A stretch of 32,000 bases of DNA from the NCBI RefSeq assembly GCF_018336915.1, contig NZ_CP064923.1, positions 5,610,001-5,642,000 on the forward strand. The letters run 5' to 3'. Below are positions 15,555-29,799 of the stretch, one piece after another. This DNA comes from Acaryochloris marina S15. Lineage in GTDB: Bacteria; Cyanobacteriota; Cyanobacteriia; Thermosynechococcales; Thermosynechococcaceae. Each line of letters starts with the position of its first letter. The first letter of the stretch is position 1. The position numbers and the translations under genes were made by a program. The notes under the pieces are model-generated. The model searched no databases. It was not told where the DNA came from and saw nothing but the letters and a program-made list of their open reading frames with translations.

Positions 15555-16001
15555 TGGTTACTTCTGTGAAAATTGAGAATAAATAATGAGGCTTGGTATT
15601 GGCCTGAAGCGTTTTGCTCAGAGAATAGCGTGACTGACTAATCGCTATCATCACGTTCGTTTGTTGCCACAGGAAATATTGCCACTCTTCATCCTATAAT
15701 TAAGCCCAAAAAATTCAGTATTCGTCACTACAGAGTGCAAAAGAATTTTTTGTGACAGCATTGGCTCAGGTTTCTCTAGCCATGCTCAGGTGTACTGCCT
15801 TATGAGGGTATGACCACCTGTCTTGTACATGTAGATTCTGCATGAAATGCATGTAGCTCTTGCTAGCACACTGCCGTCTTGGTGTGTATAGATACGAAAG
15901 TCAAGGGAAATTCTCCGTAATCTGCCTAAATACCCTTCAAATGCAAGGCAATTGTTTTGGCAGTCGATGACTGCCAATCGGTAGATGGAGATTGAGCATT
16001 G

Positions 16002-17411
16002 ATGACACAGACCCTAGCCAGTGGCCCAGACGAACAACATCCACTTTCGGTCCCGTCCACATCCCCTGAAGCGGTAGAAAAACGCGAACTGACCTACTCT
16101 CAATTGGTCATGTATGCCGCTCTCATTGGTGTATTTGGGGGACTGGTTGCCACAGCGTATTACTTTGTTTTAGAAACCCTGATGCATGGCGTTTGGCATA
16201 CCATACCCGATCGGGTAGTACCCTATTTTCCCAGTTGGCTCCCTCAAAAACACTACGTTTGGATTGCCTCTACCATCGGTGGCTTCTGCGTCGGGCTTGT
16301 TCTGTTCTTTATGGGCCTGCCAGGAGAGATGGCCCAAGTCGTCGATAAAATTCACAGCCCTGGCAAAATTGATATCCGCAAAACCCCAGCTATGATTATT
16401 GCGTCTTTGGTGGCAATTACCTCAGGGGGTAGTGCTGGGCCAGAAGCACCTTTGGTTCAGGTGAATGGTAGCTTTGGTAGCTGGCTGGGAGAAAAATTGC
16501 AGCTCACTACCACTTCGGTACGGGTGCTGACTTTTTGTGGCATGAGTGCAGCCTTGGGTGCTTTTTTTGGAGCGCCCATTGGTGCCGCCCTATTCGCTTT
16601 AGAAATTCCCCATCGTAAGGGTCTGGAATATTACGAAGCGATTGCCCCAGCCGTCGTTTCCGCGATTTTTTCCTTTGCTGTCTTTCGCATCAATACTGGC
16701 ATGACCATCGGCGGTTTCTATCATTTCGAAACAGTGCCACCTTTAACACCCATCAACTTACTGGAAGGATTAGTGCTGGGAGTGATTGGTGCTGGTGTTG
16801 CAGTGATGTTTATCGGCATATTTCGCTTGGTGGGCCATTTGCTCGCTCCCCTAGAACATTCTCGAATTCTCTTAGCCACCCTGGGAGGTCTAACCATTGG
16901 TTTAATTGCCTTGGCCTTTCCCCAAACGCTATTTTTCAGCGAAGAGCAGATTCATACAGTGATTGAAACGGGCGCAACCTTAGGGATTAGCTTTTTGCTA
17001 ATGATCGCAGTAGCCAAGATGTTTGCCATTAGCGTGACGCTCCATTCTGGCTTTTTAGGTGGATTTATTTTTCCTCTATTTTTCATTGGTGCAAATGTCG
17101 GTCTAGCGATTTCCCTGATGGTGCCTCAGGTTCATCCCACATTGGGCATGGTCTGCTTAATGGCTGCGGTGAATGTGGCGGTGACGAAAACTCCCGTGAG
17201 CACTAGCATTATTCTCAGTGTGTTGTCTGGTACGGCGATGCTGCCCGTCATTGTGATTGCTAGCTTTGTGAGCTTTTTACTGACAAGCCAAATTGCCATG
17301 ATCAAAACCCAACGGTCCCGAGAGTTAGAAGGATTTCCAACACCTGCTCTGTCAACCTCTGAATTGACTCCTAGCTTGACGTCTAGTCCCGCATCTCTAG
17401 CAATCGAGTAG
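16002..17411 (+). CDS. ClC-family voltage-gated chloride channel/antiporter homologue
   Basis: About 10-12 TM helices. ClC selectivity-filter-like motifs GGSAGPEAP (GxEGP-type, Glu present) and GFLGGFIFPLFFIGA (GxFxP). ATG at 16002, with an in-frame TTG at 15999. Confidence 0.85.
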   Translation: MTQTLASGPDEQHPLSVPSTSPEAVEKRELTYSQLVMYAALIGVFGGLVATAYYFVLETLMHGVWHTIPDRVVPYFPSWLPQKHYVWIASTIGGFCVGLVLFFMGLPGEMAQVVDKIHSPGKIDIRKTPAMIIASLVAITSGGSAGPEAPLVQVNGSFGSWLGEKLQLTTTSVRVLTFCGMSAALGAFFGAPIGAALFALEIPHRKGLEYYEAIAPAVVSAIFSFAVFRINTGMTIGGFYHFETVPPLTPINLLEGLVLGVIGAGVAVMFIGIFRLVGHLLAPLEHSRILLATLGGLTIGLIALAFPQTLFFSEEQIHTVIETGATLGISFLLMIAVAKMFAISVTLHSGFLGGFIFPLFFIGANVGLAISLMVPQVHPTLGMVCLMAAVNVAVTKTPVSTSIILSVLSGTAMLPVIVIASFVSFLLTSQIAMIKTQRSRELEGFPTPALSTSELTPSLTSSPASLAIE

Positions 17412-19313: not shown

Positions 19314-19643
19314 CTATTCAGCAAACATTTCAGTCAAGATCGATAAGAGCATTTGCTGCTCATCTTGATTGATCTGACCTAGCTTTTTGACTAATCGTTT
19401 TTTATCAACTGTGCGAATTTTATCCAAAACAATTTGTCCATCTTTTCCCTGAAATTGGCAAGCAACACGCGTTGGATATTGCCTTCCTTTTGTGGTCATG
19501 GGAGCGATGATCACTGTGGCAATGTATTGGTTCATCTCGTTAGGAGAGATCACAATACACGGTCGCGTCTTCTGAATTTCACTCTCTACTGTCGGATCGA
19601 GGTTAACTAGAAACACATCAAAACGCTTGACTACCACTCCCAT
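19314..19643 (-). CDS. mazF: Type II toxin-antitoxin system toxin, PemK/MazF family endoribonuclease
   Basis: FDVFLVNLDPTVESEIQKTRPCIVISPNEMN...VIIAPMTTKGRQYPTRV is the canonical PemK/MazF pattern. It overlaps the upstream antitoxin gene by 13 nt. Confidence 0.9.
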   Translation of the reverse strand: MGVVVKRFDVFLVNLDPTVESEIQKTRPCIVISPNEMNQYIATVIIAPMTTKGRQYPTRVACQFQGKDGQIVLDKIRTVDKKRLVKKLGQINQDEQQMLLSILTEMFAE

Positions 19644-20010: not shown

Positions 20011-21219
20011 TCACCATTCTTGGAGTGCGATCGCAACTCCGTCTCGCACATCTTTTTCCACCGTATCGTCTTCTGCTAAAGCCTGGAGCTTAGTGTAGGC
20101 AAGCTCTGAAGAGATTTGTTTGAGGGCTGCGATCGCATGGAGTCTCACCCCCATATCCGCAATCCCTAATAGCCGTATCAATTCTGGTATCGCTGTCGTA
20201 TCACCTAATTGCCCCAGGGCACTGGCAATCGTTTTATTTAAGGTCAGATCCGCACCGGGGTGATGATGCAAACAATAGATCAAAGCCTGAGTAGACACCC
20301 CTTGCAATTCTGGTTGGCGATGGAGGGTTAACGCTTTAATAATCGCTTCTGCTAGGGTCAAATTCTCATCATCAATCACCTGCAGGGCAGACGTTGTATG
20401 GGGCCAAAGCTTCTGTAAAAACCGCACAGACTGGTCATTACCAATCTGGCCCAGGGCCTGAATAATCGTTAGCTTGAAGGGGGCAGGGATATTGTCAGCA
20501 CTAGCCGTCATCCGTAACGCCTGAGCAGCCGTATCAGTACCCAACCGTCCCAGGGCCAACGCCGCCCCTTGGCAGACTTGGACATCCACATCAGTGAGAA
20601 ACGGCTGAATCAACGCCACCGGATCATGATCATGCTCATAGAAGAGGTGAGCACGATAACTAATACTTGCGATCGCAACTTGGCGAACCTGGGCACTTAA
20701 ATCAGCTAATCCCTGGAGTAAGACTGGGATAATTTGTGGATCATGAAATCGGCCAAGCGTTTCGATCACCTGCAGGCGAACCGATGCATCTTCGTCAGCA
20801 ACCGCCTTGATTAAGATCGGCACAATCACTGCATCTTGCATTTGCGACAACGCAGAGACCACCAGCCCCCGAGCAGGGGATGATTCCAGTAATGTGGCTA
20901 ATGCATCTATAGATTGTGGGCCAATTTGGGCCAGCATTTGGGCGGCGATTTCAGCAACATCATCATCATCCGCTTCTTGCAATAGCTGCGTTAATGCCAT
21001 CACGGCATCCGCATGATTAAACTCGCCTAAGATTCGGGCCACAAACCATTGCAGCTCAGGATCATCGGCGTTGTTCTGGAGAAGATCAACCAAAAACGTG
21101 ATTGCTGGTTCTCCAAAGTCAGGAATTTGCTTAGCCGTTTCCCAACGAGATGCGAAATCTCCTTGTTCTAGCTTCGTTAAAACGGATATGAGTTCACTCA
21201 CAGCGGTTGGTGATTGCAT
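20011..21219 (-). CDS. HEAT-repeat (PBS-lyase HEAT-like) protein, divergent from nirA
   Basis: Repeated ~31-aa units of the form D..VR..A..ALG.(I/L)G....(I/V)..L...L throughout, for example DASVRLQVIETLGRF, SAQVRQVAIASI and DMGVRLHAIAALKQI. ATG at 21219, with an alternative TTG at 21252. Confidence 0.8.
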   Translation of the reverse strand: MQSPTAVSELISVLTKLEQGDFASRWETAKQIPDFGEPAITFLVDLLQNNADDPELQWFVARILGEFNHADAVMALTQLLQEADDDDVAEIAAQMLAQIGPQSIDALATLLESSPARGLVVSALSQMQDAVIVPILIKAVADEDASVRLQVIETLGRFHDPQIIPVLLQGLADLSAQVRQVAIASISYRAHLFYEHDHDPVALIQPFLTDVDVQVCQGAALALGRLGTDTAAQALRMTASADNIPAPFKLTIIQALGQIGNDQSVRFLQKLWPHTTSALQVIDDENLTLAEAIIKALTLHRQPELQGVSTQALIYCLHHHPGADLTLNKTIASALGQLGDTTAIPELIRLLGIADMGVRLHAIAALKQISSELAYTKLQALAEDDTVEKDVRDGVAIALQEW

Positions 21220-21262
21220 GCCACTGCTATTCTCTCCAAACTGATTAAACAATTTGTCGATA

Positions 21263-21283
21263 GATATGCAATTTCAGCATATC
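21263..21283. promoter_or_regulatory. Perfect 7-N7-7 palindrome GATATGC-AATTTCA-GCATATC in the nirA/HEAT intergenic region. It is a candidate LysR-type (T-N11-A) operator.
   Basis: Read directly. The arms are exact reverse complements. The core ATATGC-N7-GCATAT recurs at 25267..25289 upstream of the porin gene, with the same distance to an NtcA box. Confidence 0.55.
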
Positions 21284-21318
21284 TGATTTGCAGAAACTAC
21301 ATATAGGCTATCACTTTC

Positions 21319-21360
21319 GTAACGACGGATACGAACGATCGCCATTGGAGTCGCTAAGTT
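21319..21360 (+). promoter_or_regulatory. NtcA-activated (class II-like) nirA promoter: NtcA box GTAACGACGGATAC plus a -10 element TAAGTT
   Basis: A GTA-N8-TAC consensus at 21319..21332, followed after exactly 22 nt by a TAN3T hexamer at 21355..21360. This is the canonical geometry, with the NtcA box centred near -41.5. Confidence 0.75.
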
Positions 21361-21432: not shown

Positions 21433-23379
21433 GTGAGTAATACCGCCCCAGCCGCGCCCAAAATGAATAAATTTGAGCGCTTCAAAGCGGAAAAAGATGG
21501 TTTGGCAATTCTGCCTGAACTGTCCCACTTTGCCCAGATCGGTTGGGAAGCCATGGATGACACCGACCTCACCCAACGCCTCAAATGGGTTGGATTATTC
21601 TTCCGCCCCGTCACCCCTGGCAAGTTCATGCTGCGGATGCGGATGCCCAACGGTATTCTCAGCGGCGGCCAAATGCGCGTCTTGGCTGAAGTGATTCAGC
21701 AGTATGGCGAAGATGGCTATGCCGATATTACCACTCGCCAAAATATCCAGTTGCGCGGTATTCACATCGAAGATATCCCCGATATTTTTAATCGATTCCA
21801 GCAGGCGGGTTTGACCAGCATGCAATCGGGAATGGACAACGTCCGCAACATTACCGGATCCCCCGTCGCTGGCCTGGATGCCAATGAACTGATTGATACC
21901 CGCGGTCTGGTCCGCAAAGTCCAGGACATGATCACCAATAACAGTCAGGGCAACCCCGCCTTCACCAATCTGCCTCGGAAATTCAACATTGCGATCGCAG
22001 GTGGTCGCGACAACTCCGTCCATGCCGAAATCAATGATATTGCCTTTGTTCCGGCTTACAAAGACGAAAAACTAGGCTTCAACGTTGTCGTCGGTGGCTT
22101 CTTTTCGGCTAAGCGCTGTGCCCCCGCTATTTCAATGAATGTTTGGGTCGATCACACCCAAGTAGTCGATATCAGCGAAGCCATTCTGATTGTTTACCGC
22201 GACAATGGTTCACGGGCCAATCGCCACCAATCTCGGATGATGTGGCTCATCGAAGAATGGGGCGTCGAACGCTTCCGAGCGGCTGTAGAAACCCAGATGG
22301 GTGTCACCCTCCAATCCGAAGCCGACAAAGATGAATTTGACTGGGACAAACGGGACCATATTGGCGTCCATGTCCAGCAACAACCTGGCTTGAACTTTGT
22401 GGGCATGCACGTCCCCGTGGGTCGTCTCTATGCCAACGATATGTTCGAGTTTGCCCGGATGGCCGAAGTCTACGGCAGTGGTGAAATTCGGCTCACCGTT
22501 GAGCAAAATGTCCTCATTCCCAATATTCCCGATTCTCGTCTTGACTCCTTTTTACAAGAGCCTTTGTTAGAGGTCTTCTCCATCAACCCCGATCCCCTCA
22601 CACGGGCCTTGGTGTCCTGTACCGGCAGCCAGTTTTGTAAGTTTGCTCTGATAGAAACCAAAAACCAAGCCGTAGCGGTGATTAATGACCTAGCAGATGA
22701 GCTAGAAGTCCCTAAACCCGTGCGTTTTCACTGGACTGGATGCCCGAATTCCTGTGGTCAACCCCAAGTCGCAGATATTGGCTTAATGGGCACCAAAACC
22801 CGCAAGGATGGCAAGACCGTCGAAGCCGTGGACTTATTCATGGGAGGCAAAGTCGGTAAAGATGCCGTACTCGGTGAAAAAGTCCAGAAAGCCATTCCCT
22901 GTGACGAGCTCAGAGGCGTCTTAAAAGATATTCTCATTCAACAGTTTGACGCTCAACCCCGATCCACTCCCCGCCCATCCCAAGGGATGGCCGGACTTTC
23001 ACGTCAACGCAGTTTGCACGGCACGGTGAGCCAGAACGGTTCTGCGCCCCCTGCTGCTGTCGTTCCGGCAGTAGCGCCTCCTGCACCAGTGGCTACACCC
23101 GCTTCGGCGGCCCAGCCCGCTGTGGTTCAGTTTGCAGCATCTGGCAAGGAGGTCAACTGTGATGACAGCCAATCCATATTAGAAATTGCGGAGGCTGCCG
23201 GAGTTGAGATTGAAAGCAGTTGCCAGTCTGGCAGTTGTGGCACCTGCGTCGCCAAGCTCGTTGAGGGTGAATTCCGATACGAAGCCGATCCAGACGGCTT
23301 AGGAGAAGATGATGCCGCATCAGGGCATATCTTGACCTGTATTGCCTACCCAGTCGGCAAAGTAGTCTTGGATGCCTAG
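21433..23379 (+). CDS. nirA: Ferredoxin-nitrite reductase fused to a C-terminal plant-type [2Fe-2S] ferredoxin domain
   Basis: NKFERFKAEKDGLA N-terminus. Siroheme/4Fe-4S cysteines SCTGSQFC and TGCPNSCGQ. A C-terminal Ala/Pro linker is followed by SSCQSGSCGTC...LTC (C-x4-C-x2-C-x~30-C). The start is ambiguous: GTG 21433 with AAGGA 6 nt upstream, ATG 21463, or the ORF opening at 21397. Confidence 0.93.
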   Translation: MSNTAPAAPKMNKFERFKAEKDGLAILPELSHFAQIGWEAMDDTDLTQRLKWVGLFFRPVTPGKFMLRMRMPNGILSGGQMRVLAEVIQQYGEDGYADITTRQNIQLRGIHIEDIPDIFNRFQQAGLTSMQSGMDNVRNITGSPVAGLDANELIDTRGLVRKVQDMITNNSQGNPAFTNLPRKFNIAIAGGRDNSVHAEINDIAFVPAYKDEKLGFNVVVGGFFSAKRCAPAISMNVWVDHTQVVDISEAILIVYRDNGSRANRHQSRMMWLIEEWGVERFRAAVETQMGVTLQSEADKDEFDWDKRDHIGVHVQQQPGLNFVGMHVPVGRLYANDMFEFARMAEVYGSGEIRLTVEQNVLIPNIPDSRLDSFLQEPLLEVFSINPDPLTRALVSCTGSQFCKFALIETKNQAVAVINDLADELEVPKPVRFHWTGCPNSCGQPQVADIGLMGTKTRKDGKTVEAVDLFMGGKVGKDAVLGEKVQKAIPCDELRGVLKDILIQQFDAQPRSTPRPSQGMAGLSRQRSLHGTVSQNGSAPPAAVVPAVAPPAPVATPASAAQPAVVQFAASGKEVNCDDSQSILEIAEAAGVEIESSCQSGSCGTCVAKLVEGEFRYEADPDGLGEDDAASGHILTCIAYPVGKVVLDA

Positions 23380-23454: not shown

Positions 23455-25047
23455 ATGTTGACAGAAATGTGGTCGTTTAAGGGCCGCTACAAAATCCTAC
23501 ACATGACTTGGTTTGCGTTTTTCCTGTCCTTCGTGGTCTGGTTTAACTTCCCACCTTTTGCTACCACGATTGGCCAAGAATTTGGGCTCACAAAGCCACA
23601 GCTTGGAACCATTGGTCTATGTAATGTTGCCCTCACGGTCCCTGCCCGCATCATCATTGGCATGGTGTTAGACCGTTATGGACCGCGTTTGACCTACTCT
23701 CTGCTGTTAATGTATGCAGCCATTCCTTGTTTAATTTTTGCTACCGCCCAAGGCTTTACTCAATTGGTGATTGGCCGATTGCTCATGGGTATTGTGGGGG
23801 CAGGATTTGTGATTGGCATCCGCATGACTGCCGAGTGGTTTCCCCCCAAAGAAGTGGGAACAGCAGAAGGCATTTATGGAGGATGGGGTAACTTTGGTTC
23901 TGCCTTCTCCGCCTTTACCATGGTTCTGGTTGCAACTGCCTTAAGCTTCATTCCAGGTGCTTTCAACTTTGGCGAAGCTCAAACCTTTACTGTTTTGGGT
24001 TTATCTTTCTCTAGCTCAGTGTTGAACTGGAGAGCAGCCATTGGCGGCTCGGGTATCATCGCTGCGATTTATGGCTTCATCTACTATGCCAATGTCCAAA
24101 ATACCCCTCCTGGAAAAGTTTATCAACGTCCTAAAAGTGCTCGAGGTCTAGAAGTCACTTCTGTCAGAGACTTCTACTTCCTGATGGTGATGAACATTCC
24201 TTTAACTGCCATTTTGATGGTACTGGCTTGGCGATTAAATAAAGTCAATTTCTTGACCCCATCCGCCATGTACATTACCTGGGTAGCTCTCTTTGGTCTC
24301 TATGCTTTCCAGTCTTACAACTGCTGGAGTGCCAATAAAGACTTGCTCTCAGGCCGGAAGCGCTATGCTCCTGAAGACCGCTATAAGTTTAAGCAAGTTG
24401 CCATCTTAGAACTGACTTACATTGTTAATTTTGGTTCTGAACTAGCTGTTGTAACTATGCTCCCTGCTTTCTTTGAAGGAACCTTTGGCCTCGACAAAGC
24501 CATGGCCGGTATTATTGCTTCTAGCTATGCCTTTATGAACCTGGTTTCCCGACCTGGTGGCGGTATTATCTCTGACAAAATGGGTAGCCGAAAGTGGACG
24601 ATGGTTATTCTCACGGGCGGCATGGGCATTGGTTATCTACTCATGAGCCAAGTCACCAGCAATTGGTGGCTACCCGCAGCCGTACTATTGACAATGGCCT
24701 GTTCCTTCTTCGTCCAAGCCTCCGAAGGATCTACCTTCGCGATTGTGCCTTTAGTTAAGCGCAGAGTCACAGGTCAAATCGCTGGCAACGTCGGCGCTTA
24801 CGGTAATGTTGGCGCTGTTGCCTACCTCACCACTCGCCTGCTATTCGTAGATGGAGCTGGTGCAACTCCCAATATGGCTGCTGTGAACTCTAGCTTTTTC
24901 CAGGTTCTAGGAACTACCGGTTTGATTGTCGCTTTCCTCTGTATCTTTTTCCTAGAAGAGCCTCAAGGCTCTTTTGCTGAAAGTCATGAAGGGGAAGAAA
25001 CATCAACTAATAGCCCTGTAGGGATCAAATATCCAACTACTCCATAG
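23455..25047 (+). CDS. nrtP: MFS nitrate/nitrite permease (NrtP/NapA, NarK family)
   Basis: A 12-TM MFS profile with NarK-type conserved segments (GGWGNFG and GNVGAYGNVGA). It sits between nirA and narB, 75 nt after nirA. Confidence 0.88.
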   Translation: MLTEMWSFKGRYKILHMTWFAFFLSFVVWFNFPPFATTIGQEFGLTKPQLGTIGLCNVALTVPARIIIGMVLDRYGPRLTYSLLLMYAAIPCLIFATAQGFTQLVIGRLLMGIVGAGFVIGIRMTAEWFPPKEVGTAEGIYGGWGNFGSAFSAFTMVLVATALSFIPGAFNFGEAQTFTVLGLSFSSSVLNWRAAIGGSGIIAAIYGFIYYANVQNTPPGKVYQRPKSARGLEVTSVRDFYFLMVMNIPLTAILMVLAWRLNKVNFLTPSAMYITWVALFGLYAFQSYNCWSANKDLLSGRKRYAPEDRYKFKQVAILELTYIVNFGSELAVVTMLPAFFEGTFGLDKAMAGIIASSYAFMNLVSRPGGGIISDKMGSRKWTMVILTGGMGIGYLLMSQVTSNWWLPAAVLLTMACSFFVQASEGSTFAIVPLVKRRVTGQIAGNVGAYGNVGAVAYLTTRLLFVDGAGATPNMAAVNSSFFQVLGTTGLIVAFLCIFFLEEPQGSFAESHEGEETSTNSPVGIKYPTTP

Positions 25048-25094
25048 ATAGATATCCATCTTTAACGGATATCAAAATTCAGGTTACTCTTGGC

Positions 25095-25137
25095 AAAAAC
25101 GAGAGATTTGTACAATCTACAAATCTCTCGTTTTTTG
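25095..25137 (+). terminator. Rho-independent terminator after nrtP
   Basis: A perfect 13-bp stem CGAGAGATTTGTA / TACAAATCTCTCG (25100..25130) with a 5-nt loop, followed by TTTTTT. An A-tract upstream makes it potentially bidirectional. Confidence 0.8.
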
Positions 25138-25266
25138 TTGGCAAAAATCTTGTTCATTCATTGAACTAAAGGCTGATAGTAACTCAATAGACTCATAATT
25201 TAGACATCAATTATTTTTAGAGAAAGATTGTTATCTTTACCTCAAGATTTATAAATATGTCCATTT

Positions 25267-25289
25267 TTATATGCGAAAAATGCATATAA
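25267..25289. promoter_or_regulatory. Palindrome TTATATGC-GAAAAAT-GCATATAA upstream of the porin gene. It shares the core of the nirA-upstream palindrome.
   Basis: Read directly: 8-bp perfect arms with a 7-nt spacer. The core ATATGC-N7-GCATAT is identical to that at 21264..21282. Confidence 0.55.
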
Positions 25290-25323
25290 TTTGTGCGAAT
25301 TATTCATATCTTTATCCTTATTT

Positions 25324-25365
25324 GTTCGAAGAGATACAAATCGGGATAGAGGTATTCATTACACT
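25324..25365 (+). promoter_or_regulatory. Putative NtcA-type promoter of the porin gene: GTTCGAAGAGATAC plus -10 TACACT
   Basis: A GTT-N8-TAC box at 25324..25337, one mismatch from GTA-N8-TAC. After exactly 22 nt there is a TAN3T hexamer at 25360..25365. The box centre lies 52.5 bp from the palindrome centre, the same distance as at nirA. Confidence 0.55.
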
Positions 25366-25437
25366 TAGCGGACGCTGAACTTAATTAATATTCTTCAAGT
25401 TCCGCTCAATAATTCGGTGTGAGGTTACTGAAACAAC

Positions 25438-27246
25438 ATGTCAAAACGTTTGTCCTGGTATCGGCTACTTTTTAATACCAGCGTTTTAGGAATTGCAATG
25501 GTCAATTGCATTCCTGCCCAAGCAGCACCCGAGACATCTAATCTTGATGTTACGGCTGAACAATTGGACATCGCTCCCAGTGAGGAAGTCATCCCTACAA
25601 CACTACCGTCTGTAGATGAGGCCCTGGAACTCGCGCAAGCAGTGGAAACACCCACTCTAGCCAGTCCCCCTACTTCTATTGCAGACATCGCTGGCAATCA
25701 AAACGATCCGTATTTTCCTTCGGATCCGAGTTTGCATGCCTCTGACGCCTCTCTTGGTCAGGTAACGTCTGTCTCCCAACTGTCTGATGTACAGCCTGAT
25801 GACTGGGCTTTCCAAGCCATTCAGTCTTTGGTGGAACGCTATGGATGTGTGGCTGGTTACCCCAACGGTACATTTCGTCCCAGTCGAGCCATGTCGCGAC
25901 GTGAAGCTGCGGCGTTGGTCAATGCTTGCTTAGATAACTTGAGCAATCGGTTTGCCACGAAAGAAGATTTGGATGCCCTCAAAGCGTTGCAAGATGAATT
26001 TGCCGCTGAACTCGCTACCCTTAGAGGCCGCGTCGATGGTTTAGAAGCGAGAGTCGCAACCGTAGAATCCCAACAATTCTCTACCACCACTAAATTAAAC
26101 GGGGAAGCTATTTTTGCTTTCAGTGGTGTTGCTGGCGATAACGCCACTACTGGTGCTGATATTAGTGGGCGAGTCTCTCTAAACCAGAGAACCCGTTTAA
26201 ATTTCATCACCAGCTTTACCGGTAAAGATCGGTTATATACCCGACTACAAACCTCTAATCGTCCTGTCAACTTTAGCGACGGTGCTATCCCTGGAATTAT
26301 TGACAATACAGGGACTCTGCAAACTCGGGTTGCCTTTGACACCGGCAACACCAACAACAGCGTTATCCTCGATCGCTTAGACTACAAATTCCCCATTGGT
26401 GACAAACTCAATGTTACGGTCTTTGCCAATGCGGCCTTCCACCATTACTACGCCACCACCGTCAACCCTTACTTTGAAGGATTTGGTGGTGGTAAAGGTG
26501 CCCTCTCATTCTTTGGTGAGCGCAACCCCATCTATCGAATTGGTACGGTTGCTATTCCCAATGTTGCGGGCGTCGGCACCTCTTACATGTTCAACAAAGA
26601 AAATGATTTTCGCCTTGACTTAGGCTACTTAGCGGGTCGTGCTAACCAAGCAACAACCACGGCCTTGGCCAATGGCGAAAATGAAGGTGGGTTATTTGGT
26701 GGGACCTATAGCGCTTTAGCTCAACTCAGCATTAAACCCACAGAAGGGTCTCAGGTTGGCTTAACCTATGTCCGTAATGAAGCCCCTGATGGCTTAATGA
26801 GGTTTGGCACAGGAACCGTCTTTTCCAATAATCCTTTTGGCGGTGCTAATAATATTACTGGTGATTCCTTCGGCTTTGAAGGAACCCTCAAATTAGCAGA
26901 TTGGGTCGCTGTAGGCGGTTGGTTTGGCTATACGATTGCCCGCGAAGACAATACCACCAATAAAGCAGACATTATCAATGCTGCCATTAACTTTGCCTTT
27001 CCTGATCTCGGGATGGAAGGAGCCACCGGTGGCTTAATTGTTGGAGTACCGCCAACAGTAATTAATAATGATGTCGCTGCTAGGGAGAACCCCGATCAAA
27101 CCTTCCATTTGGAAGCTTTATATTCCTTCCCTGTTAATGACTTCATCACCATTACGCCTGGCGTGATTTATCTCATTAATCCTGAAGGCAACTCCGCCAA
27201 CAGTGACATCTTAGTTGGTGTCATTCGGACGACATTTAAGTTCTAA
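25438..27246 (+). CDS. Cyanobacterial outer-membrane porin: signal peptide, SLH domain, coiled coil and an OprB-like beta-barrel
   Basis: Signal peptide ...AMVNCIPAQAAP. SLH motif DVQPDDWAFQAIQSLVERYGCVAGYPNGTFRPSRAMSRREAAALV. Coiled coil LDALKALQDEFAAELATLRGRVDGLEARV. Alternating beta-strand pattern ending in a C-terminal aromatic (...RTTFKF). Confidence 0.88.
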   Translation: MSKRLSWYRLLFNTSVLGIAMVNCIPAQAAPETSNLDVTAEQLDIAPSEEVIPTTLPSVDEALELAQAVETPTLASPPTSIADIAGNQNDPYFPSDPSLHASDASLGQVTSVSQLSDVQPDDWAFQAIQSLVERYGCVAGYPNGTFRPSRAMSRREAAALVNACLDNLSNRFATKEDLDALKALQDEFAAELATLRGRVDGLEARVATVESQQFSTTTKLNGEAIFAFSGVAGDNATTGADISGRVSLNQRTRLNFITSFTGKDRLYTRLQTSNRPVNFSDGAIPGIIDNTGTLQTRVAFDTGNTNNSVILDRLDYKFPIGDKLNVTVFANAAFHHYYATTVNPYFEGFGGGKGALSFFGERNPIYRIGTVAIPNVAGVGTSYMFNKENDFRLDLGYLAGRANQATTTALANGENEGGLFGGTYSALAQLSIKPTEGSQVGLTYVRNEAPDGLMRFGTGTVFSNNPFGGANNITGDSFGFEGTLKLADWVAVGGWFGYTIAREDNTTNKADIINAAINFAFPDLGMEGATGGLIVGVPPTVINNDVAARENPDQTFHLEALYSFPVNDFITITPGVIYLINPEGNSANSDILVGVIRTTFKF

Positions 27247-27279: not shown

Positions 27280-27314
27280 TAGGGAACGAAAAATTTTCGT
27301 TCCCTAATTTTTTT
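27280..27314 (+). terminator. Rho-independent terminator after the porin gene
   Basis: A 13-bp palindromic stem TAGGGAACGAAAA / TTTTCGTTCCCTA (27280..27306) followed by A plus a T7 run (27308..27314). Confidence 0.8.
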
Positions 27315-27474
27315 ACCTTCTCTAATTTTTGGGATAGTTTTTCTAACTCCACAACACGGTCTCCAGGCTTGAAGATCGATCACATGGGCTTTATTGCAAA
27401 ATTAGTGCATTTACAGGGGCATGATTAAAGTGCATACAAACAATGTTGAGAACGCATTACGCAGATCAGGAACC

Positions 27475-27516
27475 GTAGCTAATCTTACAATTTTTGCCTG
27501 AAATGTTGATGATAAT
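27475..27516 (+). promoter_or_regulatory. NtcA-activated narB promoter: GTAGCTAATCTTAC plus -10 GATAAT
   Basis: A perfect GTA-N8-TAC at 27475..27488. After exactly 22 nt there is a -10-like GATAAT at 27511..27516. It lies ~60 nt upstream of the narB ATG. Confidence 0.7.
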
Positions 27517-27573: not shown

Positions 27574-29799
27574 ATGACTGAACCTGTCAAAACTTTATGT
27601 CCTTACTGTGGTGTGGGCTGTGGATTAGAAGTACTGCCTCCGGCTTTGCCAGGTAAGCCTGTCAATCGAGATAGCGCGGGAACCCCCATCTGGCGAGTGC
27701 GGGGCGATCAAGCCCACCCTTCCAGCAAGGGCCAAGTTTGTGTCAAAGGAGCAACGGTTGCCGGCGCATTAGATAAAGATCGGCTGCGCTACCCGATGAT
27801 GCGGGATTCTCTAGACCAACCGTTTCGGCAGGTCACATGGGACGAAGCTTTAGAGCGGGTGGTGAGTGAACTTAAAACCGTTCATGCCAACCAAGGTCCA
27901 GACGCCATTTGCATGTATGGCTCCGGGCAGTTTCAAACCGAAGATTATTACATCGCTCAAAAGTTATTGAAAGGTTGTCTAGGCACTAATAATTTTGATG
28001 CCAATTCTCGTCTTTGCATGTCTTCTGCAGTGGCAGGGTATATCCAAAGTTTTGGCTCTGATGGCCCACCTCCTTGCTATGACGACTTGGAGCTGACGGA
28101 CTGTGCTTTTTTAATCGGGACTAATACAGCAGAATGTCATCCGATCGTTTTTAATCGGTTGCTCAAGCATCACAAGAAAAACCGCCACGTCAAAATGATT
28201 GTGGTTGACCCTAGACGTACCAAAACAGCAGAGAAAGCCGATCTGCATCTGGCCATTAAGCCTGGCACAGATATTAATTTGCTCAACGGCATTGCCCACT
28301 TGCTGATGCGTTGGGGGAAGTTTGACTCTCTTTTTATTGATGAATGTACTTCTGGTTTCGCCAGCTTTGCTAGTGTTATCAGTCAATATCCACCGGAATT
28401 AGTCGCCAGAGACTGTGGCATTCGTGTCGATGAACTCGAAAAAGCAGCCCAATACTGGAGCGAATCCCAGCGAGTGCTATCCCTGTGGTCCATGGGGGTC
28501 AATCAATCAACGGAAGGGACTGCCAAATGCCGCACCATCATTAATTTGCACTTGATGACGGGCACCATCGGTAAACCTGGTTCAGGCCCCTTTTCCTTAA
28601 CCGGGCAGCCGAATGCCATGGGAGGCCGTGAAGCGGGTGGATTATCTCATATTCTGCCCGGGTACCGGGTCGTCAAGAATCCTCAGCATCGTCAGGATGT
28701 AGAAAAAGCTTGGCAACTACCAGAAGGTAGTATTTCTCCTCAGCCCGGTTTAACAGCTTGGGATATGATTCTAGGTCTAGAAAACCAAAGCGTCGGTTTT
28801 TTCTGGGTAGCTGCAACCAATCCCGCTGTTAGTATGCCAGATATTAAACGCACCAAAGCGGCGTTATTGAAATCTCGGTTTACGATCTGTCAGGATGCTT
28901 ACTATCCCACAGAAATGGCCGATTATGCCCATGTGTTGCTACCGGCAGCCCAGTGGAGCGAGAAAACGGGCATCATGACGAATTCCGAACGCGTAGTCAC
29001 CTATTGTCCTACTTTTCGAGAGCCCGTAGGAGAAGCCCGAGCTGATTGGGACATTTTTGCTGAAGTCGGACGTCGCTTAGGGTTTGAGCGGGAGTTTGCC
29101 TTTGCCAATTCTGCAGAGGTGTATACCGAGTTTGTGAAACTAACCCGCGATCGCATCTGCGATATGAGCGGCCTCAGCCATGATCTCCTGAAAAATGGCC
29201 CCATTCAATGGCCCTTTCCCGCCTGTGCTCTAGGCGATACCATCGATGCCACCGCAACCGGCAAACGACTCTATACCAATCATCGATTTCCCACAGAAGA
29301 TGGCCGGGCCCGGTTCTCATCCTTTCATGCCAAAGGATTGGCTGAACCCCCCGACCCTGATTATCCTTTTGTACTAACGACGGGCCGCCTCTACGGTCAT
29401 TGGCATACCCAAAGCCGCACGGGACGGATTGAGAAGGTGGCCGGGATGTATCCCAATCCCTTCGTTGAGATCCATCCTCGGGATGCCGCCCGTATTGGCA
29501 TTCAGGAGGGGGAAGTATTGGAAGTGCGATCGCGTCGTGGCTTTGCTCGCGTTCCCACCAAAATTACCAAAGCCATTGCCCCTGGCACCGTCTTCATTCC
29601 CATGCATTGGGGAGCTTTATGGGCCAAACATGCTGAGGTGAATGCCTTAACCCATCCTGAAGCCTGTCCCATCTCTCTAGAACCAGAGCTGAAAGCCTGT
29701 GCCGTTCAGCTTATCCCCGCTAGCGCTTTACCTGCAGATTCTGAAGAAAATGCTGTGGAGCGACCTGCTGCATCCCTCGTCGCTCCTTCCCATTCTTAA
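27574..29799 (+). CDS. narB: Assimilatory ferredoxin-nitrate reductase (molybdopterin oxidoreductase)
   Basis: N-terminal 4Fe-4S motif CPYCGVGCG...C(VKG). MopB-family domains along the full length. C-terminal molybdopterin dinucleotide-binding region ([26 protein letters not shown]). Confidence 0.93.

Follow-up and report, generated by a model that had tools for sequence, protein, structure and literature searches.

A porin gene in the nitrate-assimilation cluster of Acaryochloris marina S15 with a predicted NtcB- and NtcA-dependent promoter

Studies of nitrate assimilation have dealt mainly with the inner-membrane transporters (NrtABCD, NrtP) and both reductases and, to our knowledge, the passage of nitrate and nitrite across the cyanobacterial outer membrane remains largely unaddressed. 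In Acaryochloris marina S15, a porin gene is located between nirA-nrtP and narB. The original prediction for this DNA held that the porin promoter copies the nirA promoter architecture at identical spacing, and assigned the porin to the regulon of nitrite reductase, under the control of NtcA and a second factor. Does this porin belong to the nitrate regulon, which factor would act together with NtcA, and what could an outer-membrane channel contribute to the pathway?

Genes and promoters of the locus

The window, i.e. the whole 32-kb stretch of DNA that was analysed, contains the following genes and terminators of interest:

16002-17411, + strand: ClC-family channel/transporter gene (Voltage_CLC; Pfam PF00654, 1.6e-53)
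20011-21252, - strand: HEAT-repeat gene (NblB/CpcE-like), divergent from nirA
21433-23379, + strand: nirA, GTG start (NCBIfam PRK09566, 8.5e-266), with a C-terminal 2Fe-2S ferredoxin domain
23455-25047, + strand: nrtP/NarK-type nitrate/nitrite permease gene (TIGR00886, 6.2e-118)
25092-25139, + strand: intrinsic terminator hairpin after nrtP (fold -24.2 kcal/mol, z = -8.0, T-run)
25438-27246, + strand: porin gene, 602 aa (signal peptide, SLH domain, OprB-type barrel)
27280-27315, + strand: intrinsic terminator after the porin gene (-16.7 kcal/mol, z = -6.2, T-run)
27574-29799, + strand: narB, assimilatory nitrate reductase (NasC/NasA-type molybdopterin enzyme, E = 2e-149), followed by pepA as the next gene

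The post-nrtP terminator, whose equivalent is also found in relatives, sets the porin gene apart from the upstream nirA-nrtP operon. Because a terminator is present on each side, the porin gene forms its own transcription unit between nirA-nrtP and narB.

The surroundings of nirA display several features of their own. The divergent pairing of nirA with the HEAT gene is kept in L001, L003-L005, L007 and L090 and rearranged in L010. The annotated TTG start of the HEAT gene is just 14 bp from the nirA NtcB box described below, suggesting that the control region may be shared or that the true start is further downstream. NirA is a fusion with a plant-type 2Fe-2S ferredoxin domain, which covers about residues 577-659 of the listed ORF (TIGR02008 match at residues 582-658, 8.1e-16), and NirA forms of about 630-670 aa are also present among the metagenome matches (e.g. 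L098, L108). A MazF-type toxin gene (19314-19643, - strand; NF007386, 3.7e-13) is located between a HAD hydrolase gene and the HEAT/nirA cluster.

The elements of the nirA and porin promoters are:

21263-21283, + strand: nirA palindrome GATATGC-N7-GCATATC, centre 21273
21266-21302, + strand: nirA NtcB box ATGC-N7-GCAT-N7-TTGC-N7-ACAT, with the proximal, degenerate TTGC-N7-ACAT at 21288-21302
21319-21332, + strand: nirA NtcA box GTAACGACGGATAC, centre 21325.5, 16 bp after the NtcB box
21355-21360, + strand: nirA -10 element TAAGTT, 22 nt past the NtcA box
25267-25289, + strand: porin palindrome TTATATGC-N7-GCATATAA (also written as the TTATATGC-N7-GCATAATAA type), centre 25278
25271-25285, + strand: porin distal NtcB half-box ATGC-N7-GCAT, matching the published NtcB box
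25293-25307, + strand: porin proximal, degenerate NtcB half-box GTGC-N7-TCAT, 7 bp past the distal one, a spacing also seen in the Anabaena nirA promoter
25324-25337, + strand: porin NtcA-type box GTTCGAAGAGATAC, centre 25330.5, with 5/6 consensus bases, 16 bp after the NtcB box
25360-25365, + strand: porin -10 element TACACT (TAN3T), 22 nt past the NtcA box

A hand count on the raw sequence recovered every previously described element at its predicted position, and within the window the 52.5 bp from palindrome to NtcA box and the 22 nt from this box to the -10 element are confirmed at both promoters. Exactly two copies of ATATGC-N7-GCATAT occur in the 32 kb, compared with 0.0022 expected from the base composition, in agreement with the earlier view that chance is unlikely. 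The palindrome is only part of the element, however: at both promoters the original prediction had missed a second, degenerate palindrome 7 bp downstream, and the full box spans 37 bp in total.

This double palindrome resembles the NtcB box of the Anabaena nirA promoter, which was resolved by cryo-EM as ATGC-N7-GCAT-N7-ATGC-N7-GCAT at -100 to -64, with the NtcA box GTA-N8-TAC at -48 to -35, after a spacer of 15 bp (bioRxiv 10.1101/2022.10.10.511513). The two palindromes are read there by an NtcB tetramer, whose DNA contacts are Arg34 and His53, and looping of the DNA leads to contact with the alpha-NTD of RNA polymerase (bioRxiv 10.1101/2022.10.10.511513). Since the nirA and porin promoters fit this grammar, the second factor would be NtcB, bound as a tetramer to the two palindromes, and the claim of control by NtcA plus another regulator is supported. 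Taking two ATGC-N7-GCAT palindromes 7 bp apart as the standard, the porin NtcB box matches 14 of 16 half-site bases; its NtcA box reads GTT-N8-TAC, versus the canonical GTA, and the spacer between the two boxes is 16 bp, versus about 15 bp in the nirA-type definition. This definition comprises an NtcA box GTA-N8-TAC (GT-N10-AC as a minimum) with TAN3T about 22 nt on and no -35 element; the porin promoter has GTTCGAAGAGATAC and TACACT 22 nt later, and the same holds for all nine orthologs described below. Transcription of the porin gene is predicted to start near 25372. The nirA NtcB box has the same form in L001, L003, L004 and L090.

The ntcB gene is outside the 32-kb window. The same locus in the Acaryochloris MAG IP29b_bin.137 (L003) is accompanied in that genome by an NtcB, P0282 (E = 1.2e-133 to PDB 8h3v), which keeps R34 and H53 and has a recognition segment nearly identical to that of Anabaena NtcB (VTQSTVSRQIQ vs VTQSTISRQIQ). 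An NtcB with intact DNA-contact residues is present in the Acaryochloris lineage, and ntcB is found in close relatives, this MAG among them.

Two further promoters of the same layout were found in the window:

27421-27457, + strand: narB NtcB box ATGA-N7-GCAT-N7-ATGT-N7-GCAT, 14/16
27475-27488, + strand: narB NtcA box GTAGCTAATCTTAC, 17-bp spacer from the NtcB box
27511-27516, + strand: narB -10 element GATAAT, GATAAT-like rather than TAN3T
15829-15865, + strand: ClC gene NtcB box ATGT-N7-GCAT-N7-ATGT-N7-GCTA, 12/16
15882-15895, + strand: ClC gene NtcA box GTGTGTATAGATAC, 16-bp spacer from the NtcB box
15918-15923, + strand: ClC gene -10 element TAATCT

The window has four such promoters (ClC gene at 15882, nirA at 21319, porin at 25324, narB at 27475), compared with an expected 0.003 (mean of 300 Markov simulations). 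At narB, the left half-sites read ATGA/ATGT; this form is specific to the gene and recurs before narB in L003, L004, L006 and L007. The layout of the ClC promoter is kept in L090 (13/16) and is found in L091 with 12/16 and a perfect GTA-N8-TAC box in an unrelated context; in Synechococcus PCC 7335 (L135) it is weak (10/16, with GTA-N8-AAC and TAACTT at 22 nt).

The leader of the porin transcript was inspected as well. A GGTGTGAGGTT ribosome-binding region (GTGTGAGG core) at 25415-25425 is near-invariant upstream of the porin orthologs and is present in L001, L003, L004, L006 and L102 even with the remainder of the 5' UTR diverged. A hairpin in this 5' UTR (25376-25403) was considered as a structured RNA and rejected (fold z = -1.4, unfavourable covariation term), and no Rfam family was found anywhere in the window.

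Conservation and specificity of the promoter layout

The closest homologs of the porin are from MAGs named Acaryochloris sp., and an exact-sequence look-up found neither the window porin nor P0152 on record. Nine porins with at least 60% identity (L001, L003-L010) were taken as the ortholog group. The gene order nirA-nrtP-porin-narB is found in the Acaryochloris group (93-73% identity; L001, L003-L007), while the porin is followed by ntcB-cnaT-mobA-narM in Lyngbya confervoides (L008, 64% identity) and by ntcB-cnaT-mobA, without narM, in Altericista (L009, 60% identity); L010 (62% identity) presents the arrangement nirA<>HEAT-porin. The LysR gene downstream of the L008 and L009 porins is NtcB (E = 6.5e-124 to PDB 8h3v), and the genes after it in this context encode CnaT-like, MobA and NarM proteins. 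Three more distant porins (42-47% identity) adjoin nitrate genes too: L011 in a Thermosynechococcaceae MAG (porin-ntcB), L015 in Calothrix (nirA-nrtP-narB-narM-mobA-porin) and L033 in Zarconia (nrtP-narB-narM-porin-ntcB). No NtcB box was detected at the L011, L015 and L033 porins, the upstream region of L011 being incomplete, and the Zarconia promoter displays an NtcA-type box only.

For each promoter we counted how many of the 16 half-site bases match when the NtcB box is placed 15 or 16 bp from a GTN-N8-TAC-type box. A profile search of genome contigs with the porin ortholog alignment, which retrieved at least one ortholog and at least 79 paralogs, provided the control set. All nine ortholog promoters score 11-14/16, with TAN3T exactly 22 nt past the box (binomial tail P(X>=11) = 2.9e-4 per test). 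In contrast, the paralogs (about 76 among the matches listed; 40-47% identity) reach at most 10/16, none with TAN3T at 22 nt, and no nitrogen genes are located nearby among those same matches. The low-scoring paralogs include some from the same genomes as orthologs (L012 in the genome of L003, L027 in that of L009).

Within the ortholog group, the distal ATGC is kept in six of the nine promoters and differs by one or two bases in the others; relatives retain the ATGC/GCAT core of the longer window palindrome but not its flanking AT/AT. The NtcA boxes are GTA, GTG, GTC or GTT-N8-TAC at the same place, with GTA-N8-CAC in L010. The "identical spacing" originally proposed is true for nirA and the porin in the window but is no rule, as relatives have 15 or 16 bp at either promoter and narB in the window has 17. 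A co-variation of the nirA and porin spacers was also considered and rejected: the two are equal in the window (16/16), L001 (15/15) and L003 (15/15) and unequal in L004 (16/15) and L007 (15/16).

The NtcB box drops to 11/16 in L004 and L005, and the distal palindrome is lost in L004. Such degradation suggests that the NtcB contribution may vary between species, and it raises the alternative of a promoter driven by NtcA alone, in which the palindromes would be bound by another LysR-type or other regulator, or by nothing, and the porin would take part in a general nitrogen-stress response like slr1841. T-N11-A motifs are indeed generic for LysR-type regulators. The Zarconia promoter with its solitary NtcA-type box points in the same direction, and NtcA alone is known on porin promoters (PMC3898017, PMC5714215). 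Nevertheless, the promoter agrees with the cryo-EM NtcB box in its half-sites, in the 7-bp spacing within and between the palindromes and in the 15-17 bp that lie between the palindromes and the NtcA box; these features recur at nirA and narB of the same genomes, high scores are confined to 15-17-bp spacers, and the porin is directly beside ntcB in L008, L009 and L011. We therefore consider control by NtcA alone quite improbable and retain dual control by NtcA and NtcB as the preferred reading.

A different objection would be that the resemblance of the two promoters is due to chance or is the functionless remnant of a duplicated nirA promoter fragment. Partial palindromes are frequent in AT-rich intergenic DNA, and the bare ATGC-N7-GCAT core occurs 18 times in 1.08 Mb of control loci versus 14.9 expected, i.e. 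at chance level. As the bare core is at chance frequency, the specificity resides in the full layout. When both strands of the window and of all the loci collected at that stage (2.5 Mb) were scanned with spacers of 10-22 bp, 25 sites with at least 12/16 matches were recovered, 22 of them at 15-17-bp spacers and 3 stray sites across the other 10 spacers tested. Of these 22, 21 precede nirA, narB, an ortholog porin or the ClC gene of the window, with control locus L030 as the single exception. Chance would give 0.0022 copies of the 12-base palindrome and 0.003 of the full layout in the window, as stated above, whereas two and four were observed.

An in-register alignment of the nirA and porin promoters gives 88% identity at the 25 motif positions, 29% at the other 70 positions and 24% in the 100-bp upstream flank. 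This difference between motif and remaining positions indicates selection on the binding sites and excludes a recent duplication, so that the claim of a "copied" architecture stands for the grammar common to both promoters and not for the sequence between the motifs. Across the orthologs, too, the layout is kept and the intervening bases diverge. Chance or a remnant is effectively refuted by these observations, and we accord it next to no probability.

A metagenome scan with the strict pattern ATGC-N7-GCAT-N8-TGC-N8-CAT-N15/16-GT-N9-TAC retrieved 43 loci, in which the first downstream gene is nirA in 26, nrtP in one and a porin in one; the others have no ORF or unrelated ORFs, in about the number estimated for chance. 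The metagenome porin (L102) has the GGTGTGAGGTT ribosome-binding region in common with the window porin. At about 475-700 of L102, the porin gene follows a perfect NtcB box and meets a stop codon just past the SLH domain; the sequence beyond the stop is unrelated and GC-rich, suggesting an insertion, an intron or a mis-assembly.

Altogether, the motif match, its conservation, the controls, its specificity, the metagenome scan and the presence of NtcB support the assignment of the porin to the nitrite-reductase regulon. Judged by this comparative evidence, the porin gene is a new and conserved member of the known NtcA+NtcB regulon, and the small known NtcB regulon would be enlarged by it. Since nearly all high-scoring sites in 2.5 Mb precede nitrate-related genes, the structure-derived motif grammar appears to predict regulon members with very few false positives.

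Possible functions of the porin and the ClC-family protein

The OprB barrel (Pfam PF04966, 1.6e-47, 163.2 bits, cut-off 22.9) and the N-terminal SLH domain (PF00395, 4.3e-10, 39.8 bits, cut-off 20.8) both score above their curated cut-offs, which places the protein in the SLH-OprB class, in agreement with NCBIfam NF033921 por_somb (7.8e-151, 503 bits, cut-off 100). Seven residues are specific to the ortholog group (T302, R313, D315, F334, G348, T370, P450), with no basic enrichment among them (one Arg gained, one lost; R313 and the lost R358 are the arginines concerned). The net charge of the barrel does not differ significantly between orthologs and paralogs (-5.5 vs -9.1, p = 0.16), and no solved barrel structure was found, the structure matches covering the SLH domain only.

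The regulation could thus be real and the porin still be a general or cation/iron channel, serving the iron/molybdenum demand of the reductases or nutrient scavenging, and no nitrate/nitrite channel. The family-level label of this porin in NCBIfam is 'iron uptake porin', and neither the charge nor the residues carry a signature of anion selectivity. Both reductases are Fe-S enzymes, NirA with siroheme and NarB with molybdenum, and the L008 porin has mobA and narM in its neighbourhood. However, three independent arrangements place the porin beside nitrate/nitrite permease or reductase genes or beside ntcB, its promoter uses the box of a pathway-specific co-activator beyond a mere NtcA box, and 'iron uptake porin' is a subfamily-level name without a tested function for this group. 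A general or iron channel seems rather unlikely to us.

Given these three independent gene contexts and the pathway-specific promoter, we infer a role of the porin in nitrate/nitrite passage. We consider it highly probable that the porin is a separate unit in the NtcA+NtcB nitrate regulon, with nitrate/nitrite passage across the outer membrane as its likeliest role. We further infer protein binding and nitrogen-dependent expression at its promoter. When ammonium is scarce, 2-oxoglutarate-bound NtcA would occupy GTTCGAAGAGATAC, centred about 41.5 bp upstream of the start near 25372, and take the place of a -35 element. An NtcB tetramer would sit on ATGC-N7-GCAT and GTGC-N7-TCAT, 16 bp further upstream of the NtcA box. 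As described for the Anabaena nirA complex, bending of the DNA by NtcA and NtcB would form a loop that brings NtcB into contact with the alpha subunit of RNA polymerase. As nirA-nrtP, narB and the ClC gene have the promoter layout of the porin, all of them would be switched on together without ammonium; the outer-membrane channel would probably be co-induced in this way with nitrate uptake and reduction. The porin would then feed the NrtP permease with nitrate/nitrite or release excess nitrite.

The ClC-family gene has a promoter of this type as well, and its divergent product, which might act as a channel or exchanger for nitrate or nitrite, is a second candidate transporter of these ions. 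The filter motif GSGIP/GPGIP is absent from the window ClC protein and 120 homologs, and the anion preference is therefore not readable from the sequence. In Synechocystis, the transcription unit of nirP1, a nitrite-reductase regulator, overlaps the ClC gene sll1864 (PMC10907346), a link to the window gene that is circumstantial.

More tentatively, one could imagine a dedicated outer-membrane nitrate/nitrite gate, formed by this NtcA+NtcB-driven SLH-OprB subfamily and acting with the divergent ClC channel of the same promoter type, in Acaryochloris relatives, Altericista, Lyngbya confervoides and uncultured lineages. If so, regulation of the nitrate pathway would extend to both membranes, and the NtcB regulon would include more than the classical nirA/nrt/narB set. 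A porin subfamily located in nitrate clusters behind an NtcB+NtcA promoter provides, in any case, a concrete candidate for outer-membrane nitrate/nitrite passage.

Comparison with known systems

In the literature covered (subscription journals and RegPrecise being outside this coverage), no earlier description was found of a porin that carries an NtcB box or is located in a nitrate cluster. The nearest relatives by protein architecture are the SLH-OprB porins of the 'iron uptake porin' family NF033921 (SomA/SomB, Slr1908), which have in common with the porin described here the signal peptide, SLH domain, coiled coil and OprB barrel. In contrast to them, this porin belongs to a subfamily of at least 55-60% identity with the seven group-specific residues, its own promoter type and its own gene neighbourhood.

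The nearest promoter is that of nirA in Anabaena sp. PCC 7120 (PDB 8h3v). Both promoters have a double palindrome upstream of the NtcA box, TAN3T 22 nt past this box and no -35 element, and the distance from the distal palindrome to the centre of the NtcA box is 51.5 bp in Anabaena and 51.5-53.5 bp here. They differ in the spacer (16 bp at the porin promoter, 15 bp in Anabaena), in the proximal palindrome, which is degenerate at the porin promoter (GTGC/TCAT), in the NtcA box (GTT-N8-TAC instead of GTA-N8-TAC) and in the gene that is driven, an outer-membrane porin here and the nir operon in Anabaena.

A connection between outer-membrane permeability and nitrogen status has been described for other porins. 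NtcA binds in vivo, as seen by ChIP, to the promoters of the porin genes slr1841 in Synechocystis 6803 (PMC5714215) and all7614 in Anabaena 7120 (PMC3898017), which are likewise OprB/SLH-type porin genes with an NtcA site upstream. In these sources, as read here, no NtcB box and no position among nitrate-assimilation genes is described for the two promoters (PMC5714215, PMC3898017); those two sites were identified by ChIP, whereas the evidence for the porin promoter described here is comparative.

Finally, in Synechococcus sp. PCC 7002 the LysR-type regulator CcmR regulates the 'bicarbonate porin' porB together with sbtA/sbtB (PMC5062996). Both systems therefore present a porin in a pathway-specific LysR-type regulon with an inner-membrane transporter of the same nutrient, although that of Synechococcus belongs to the carbon pathway with another regulator and motif, whereas the porin of the nitrate cluster would depend on dual activation by a CRP-family and a LysR-family protein.
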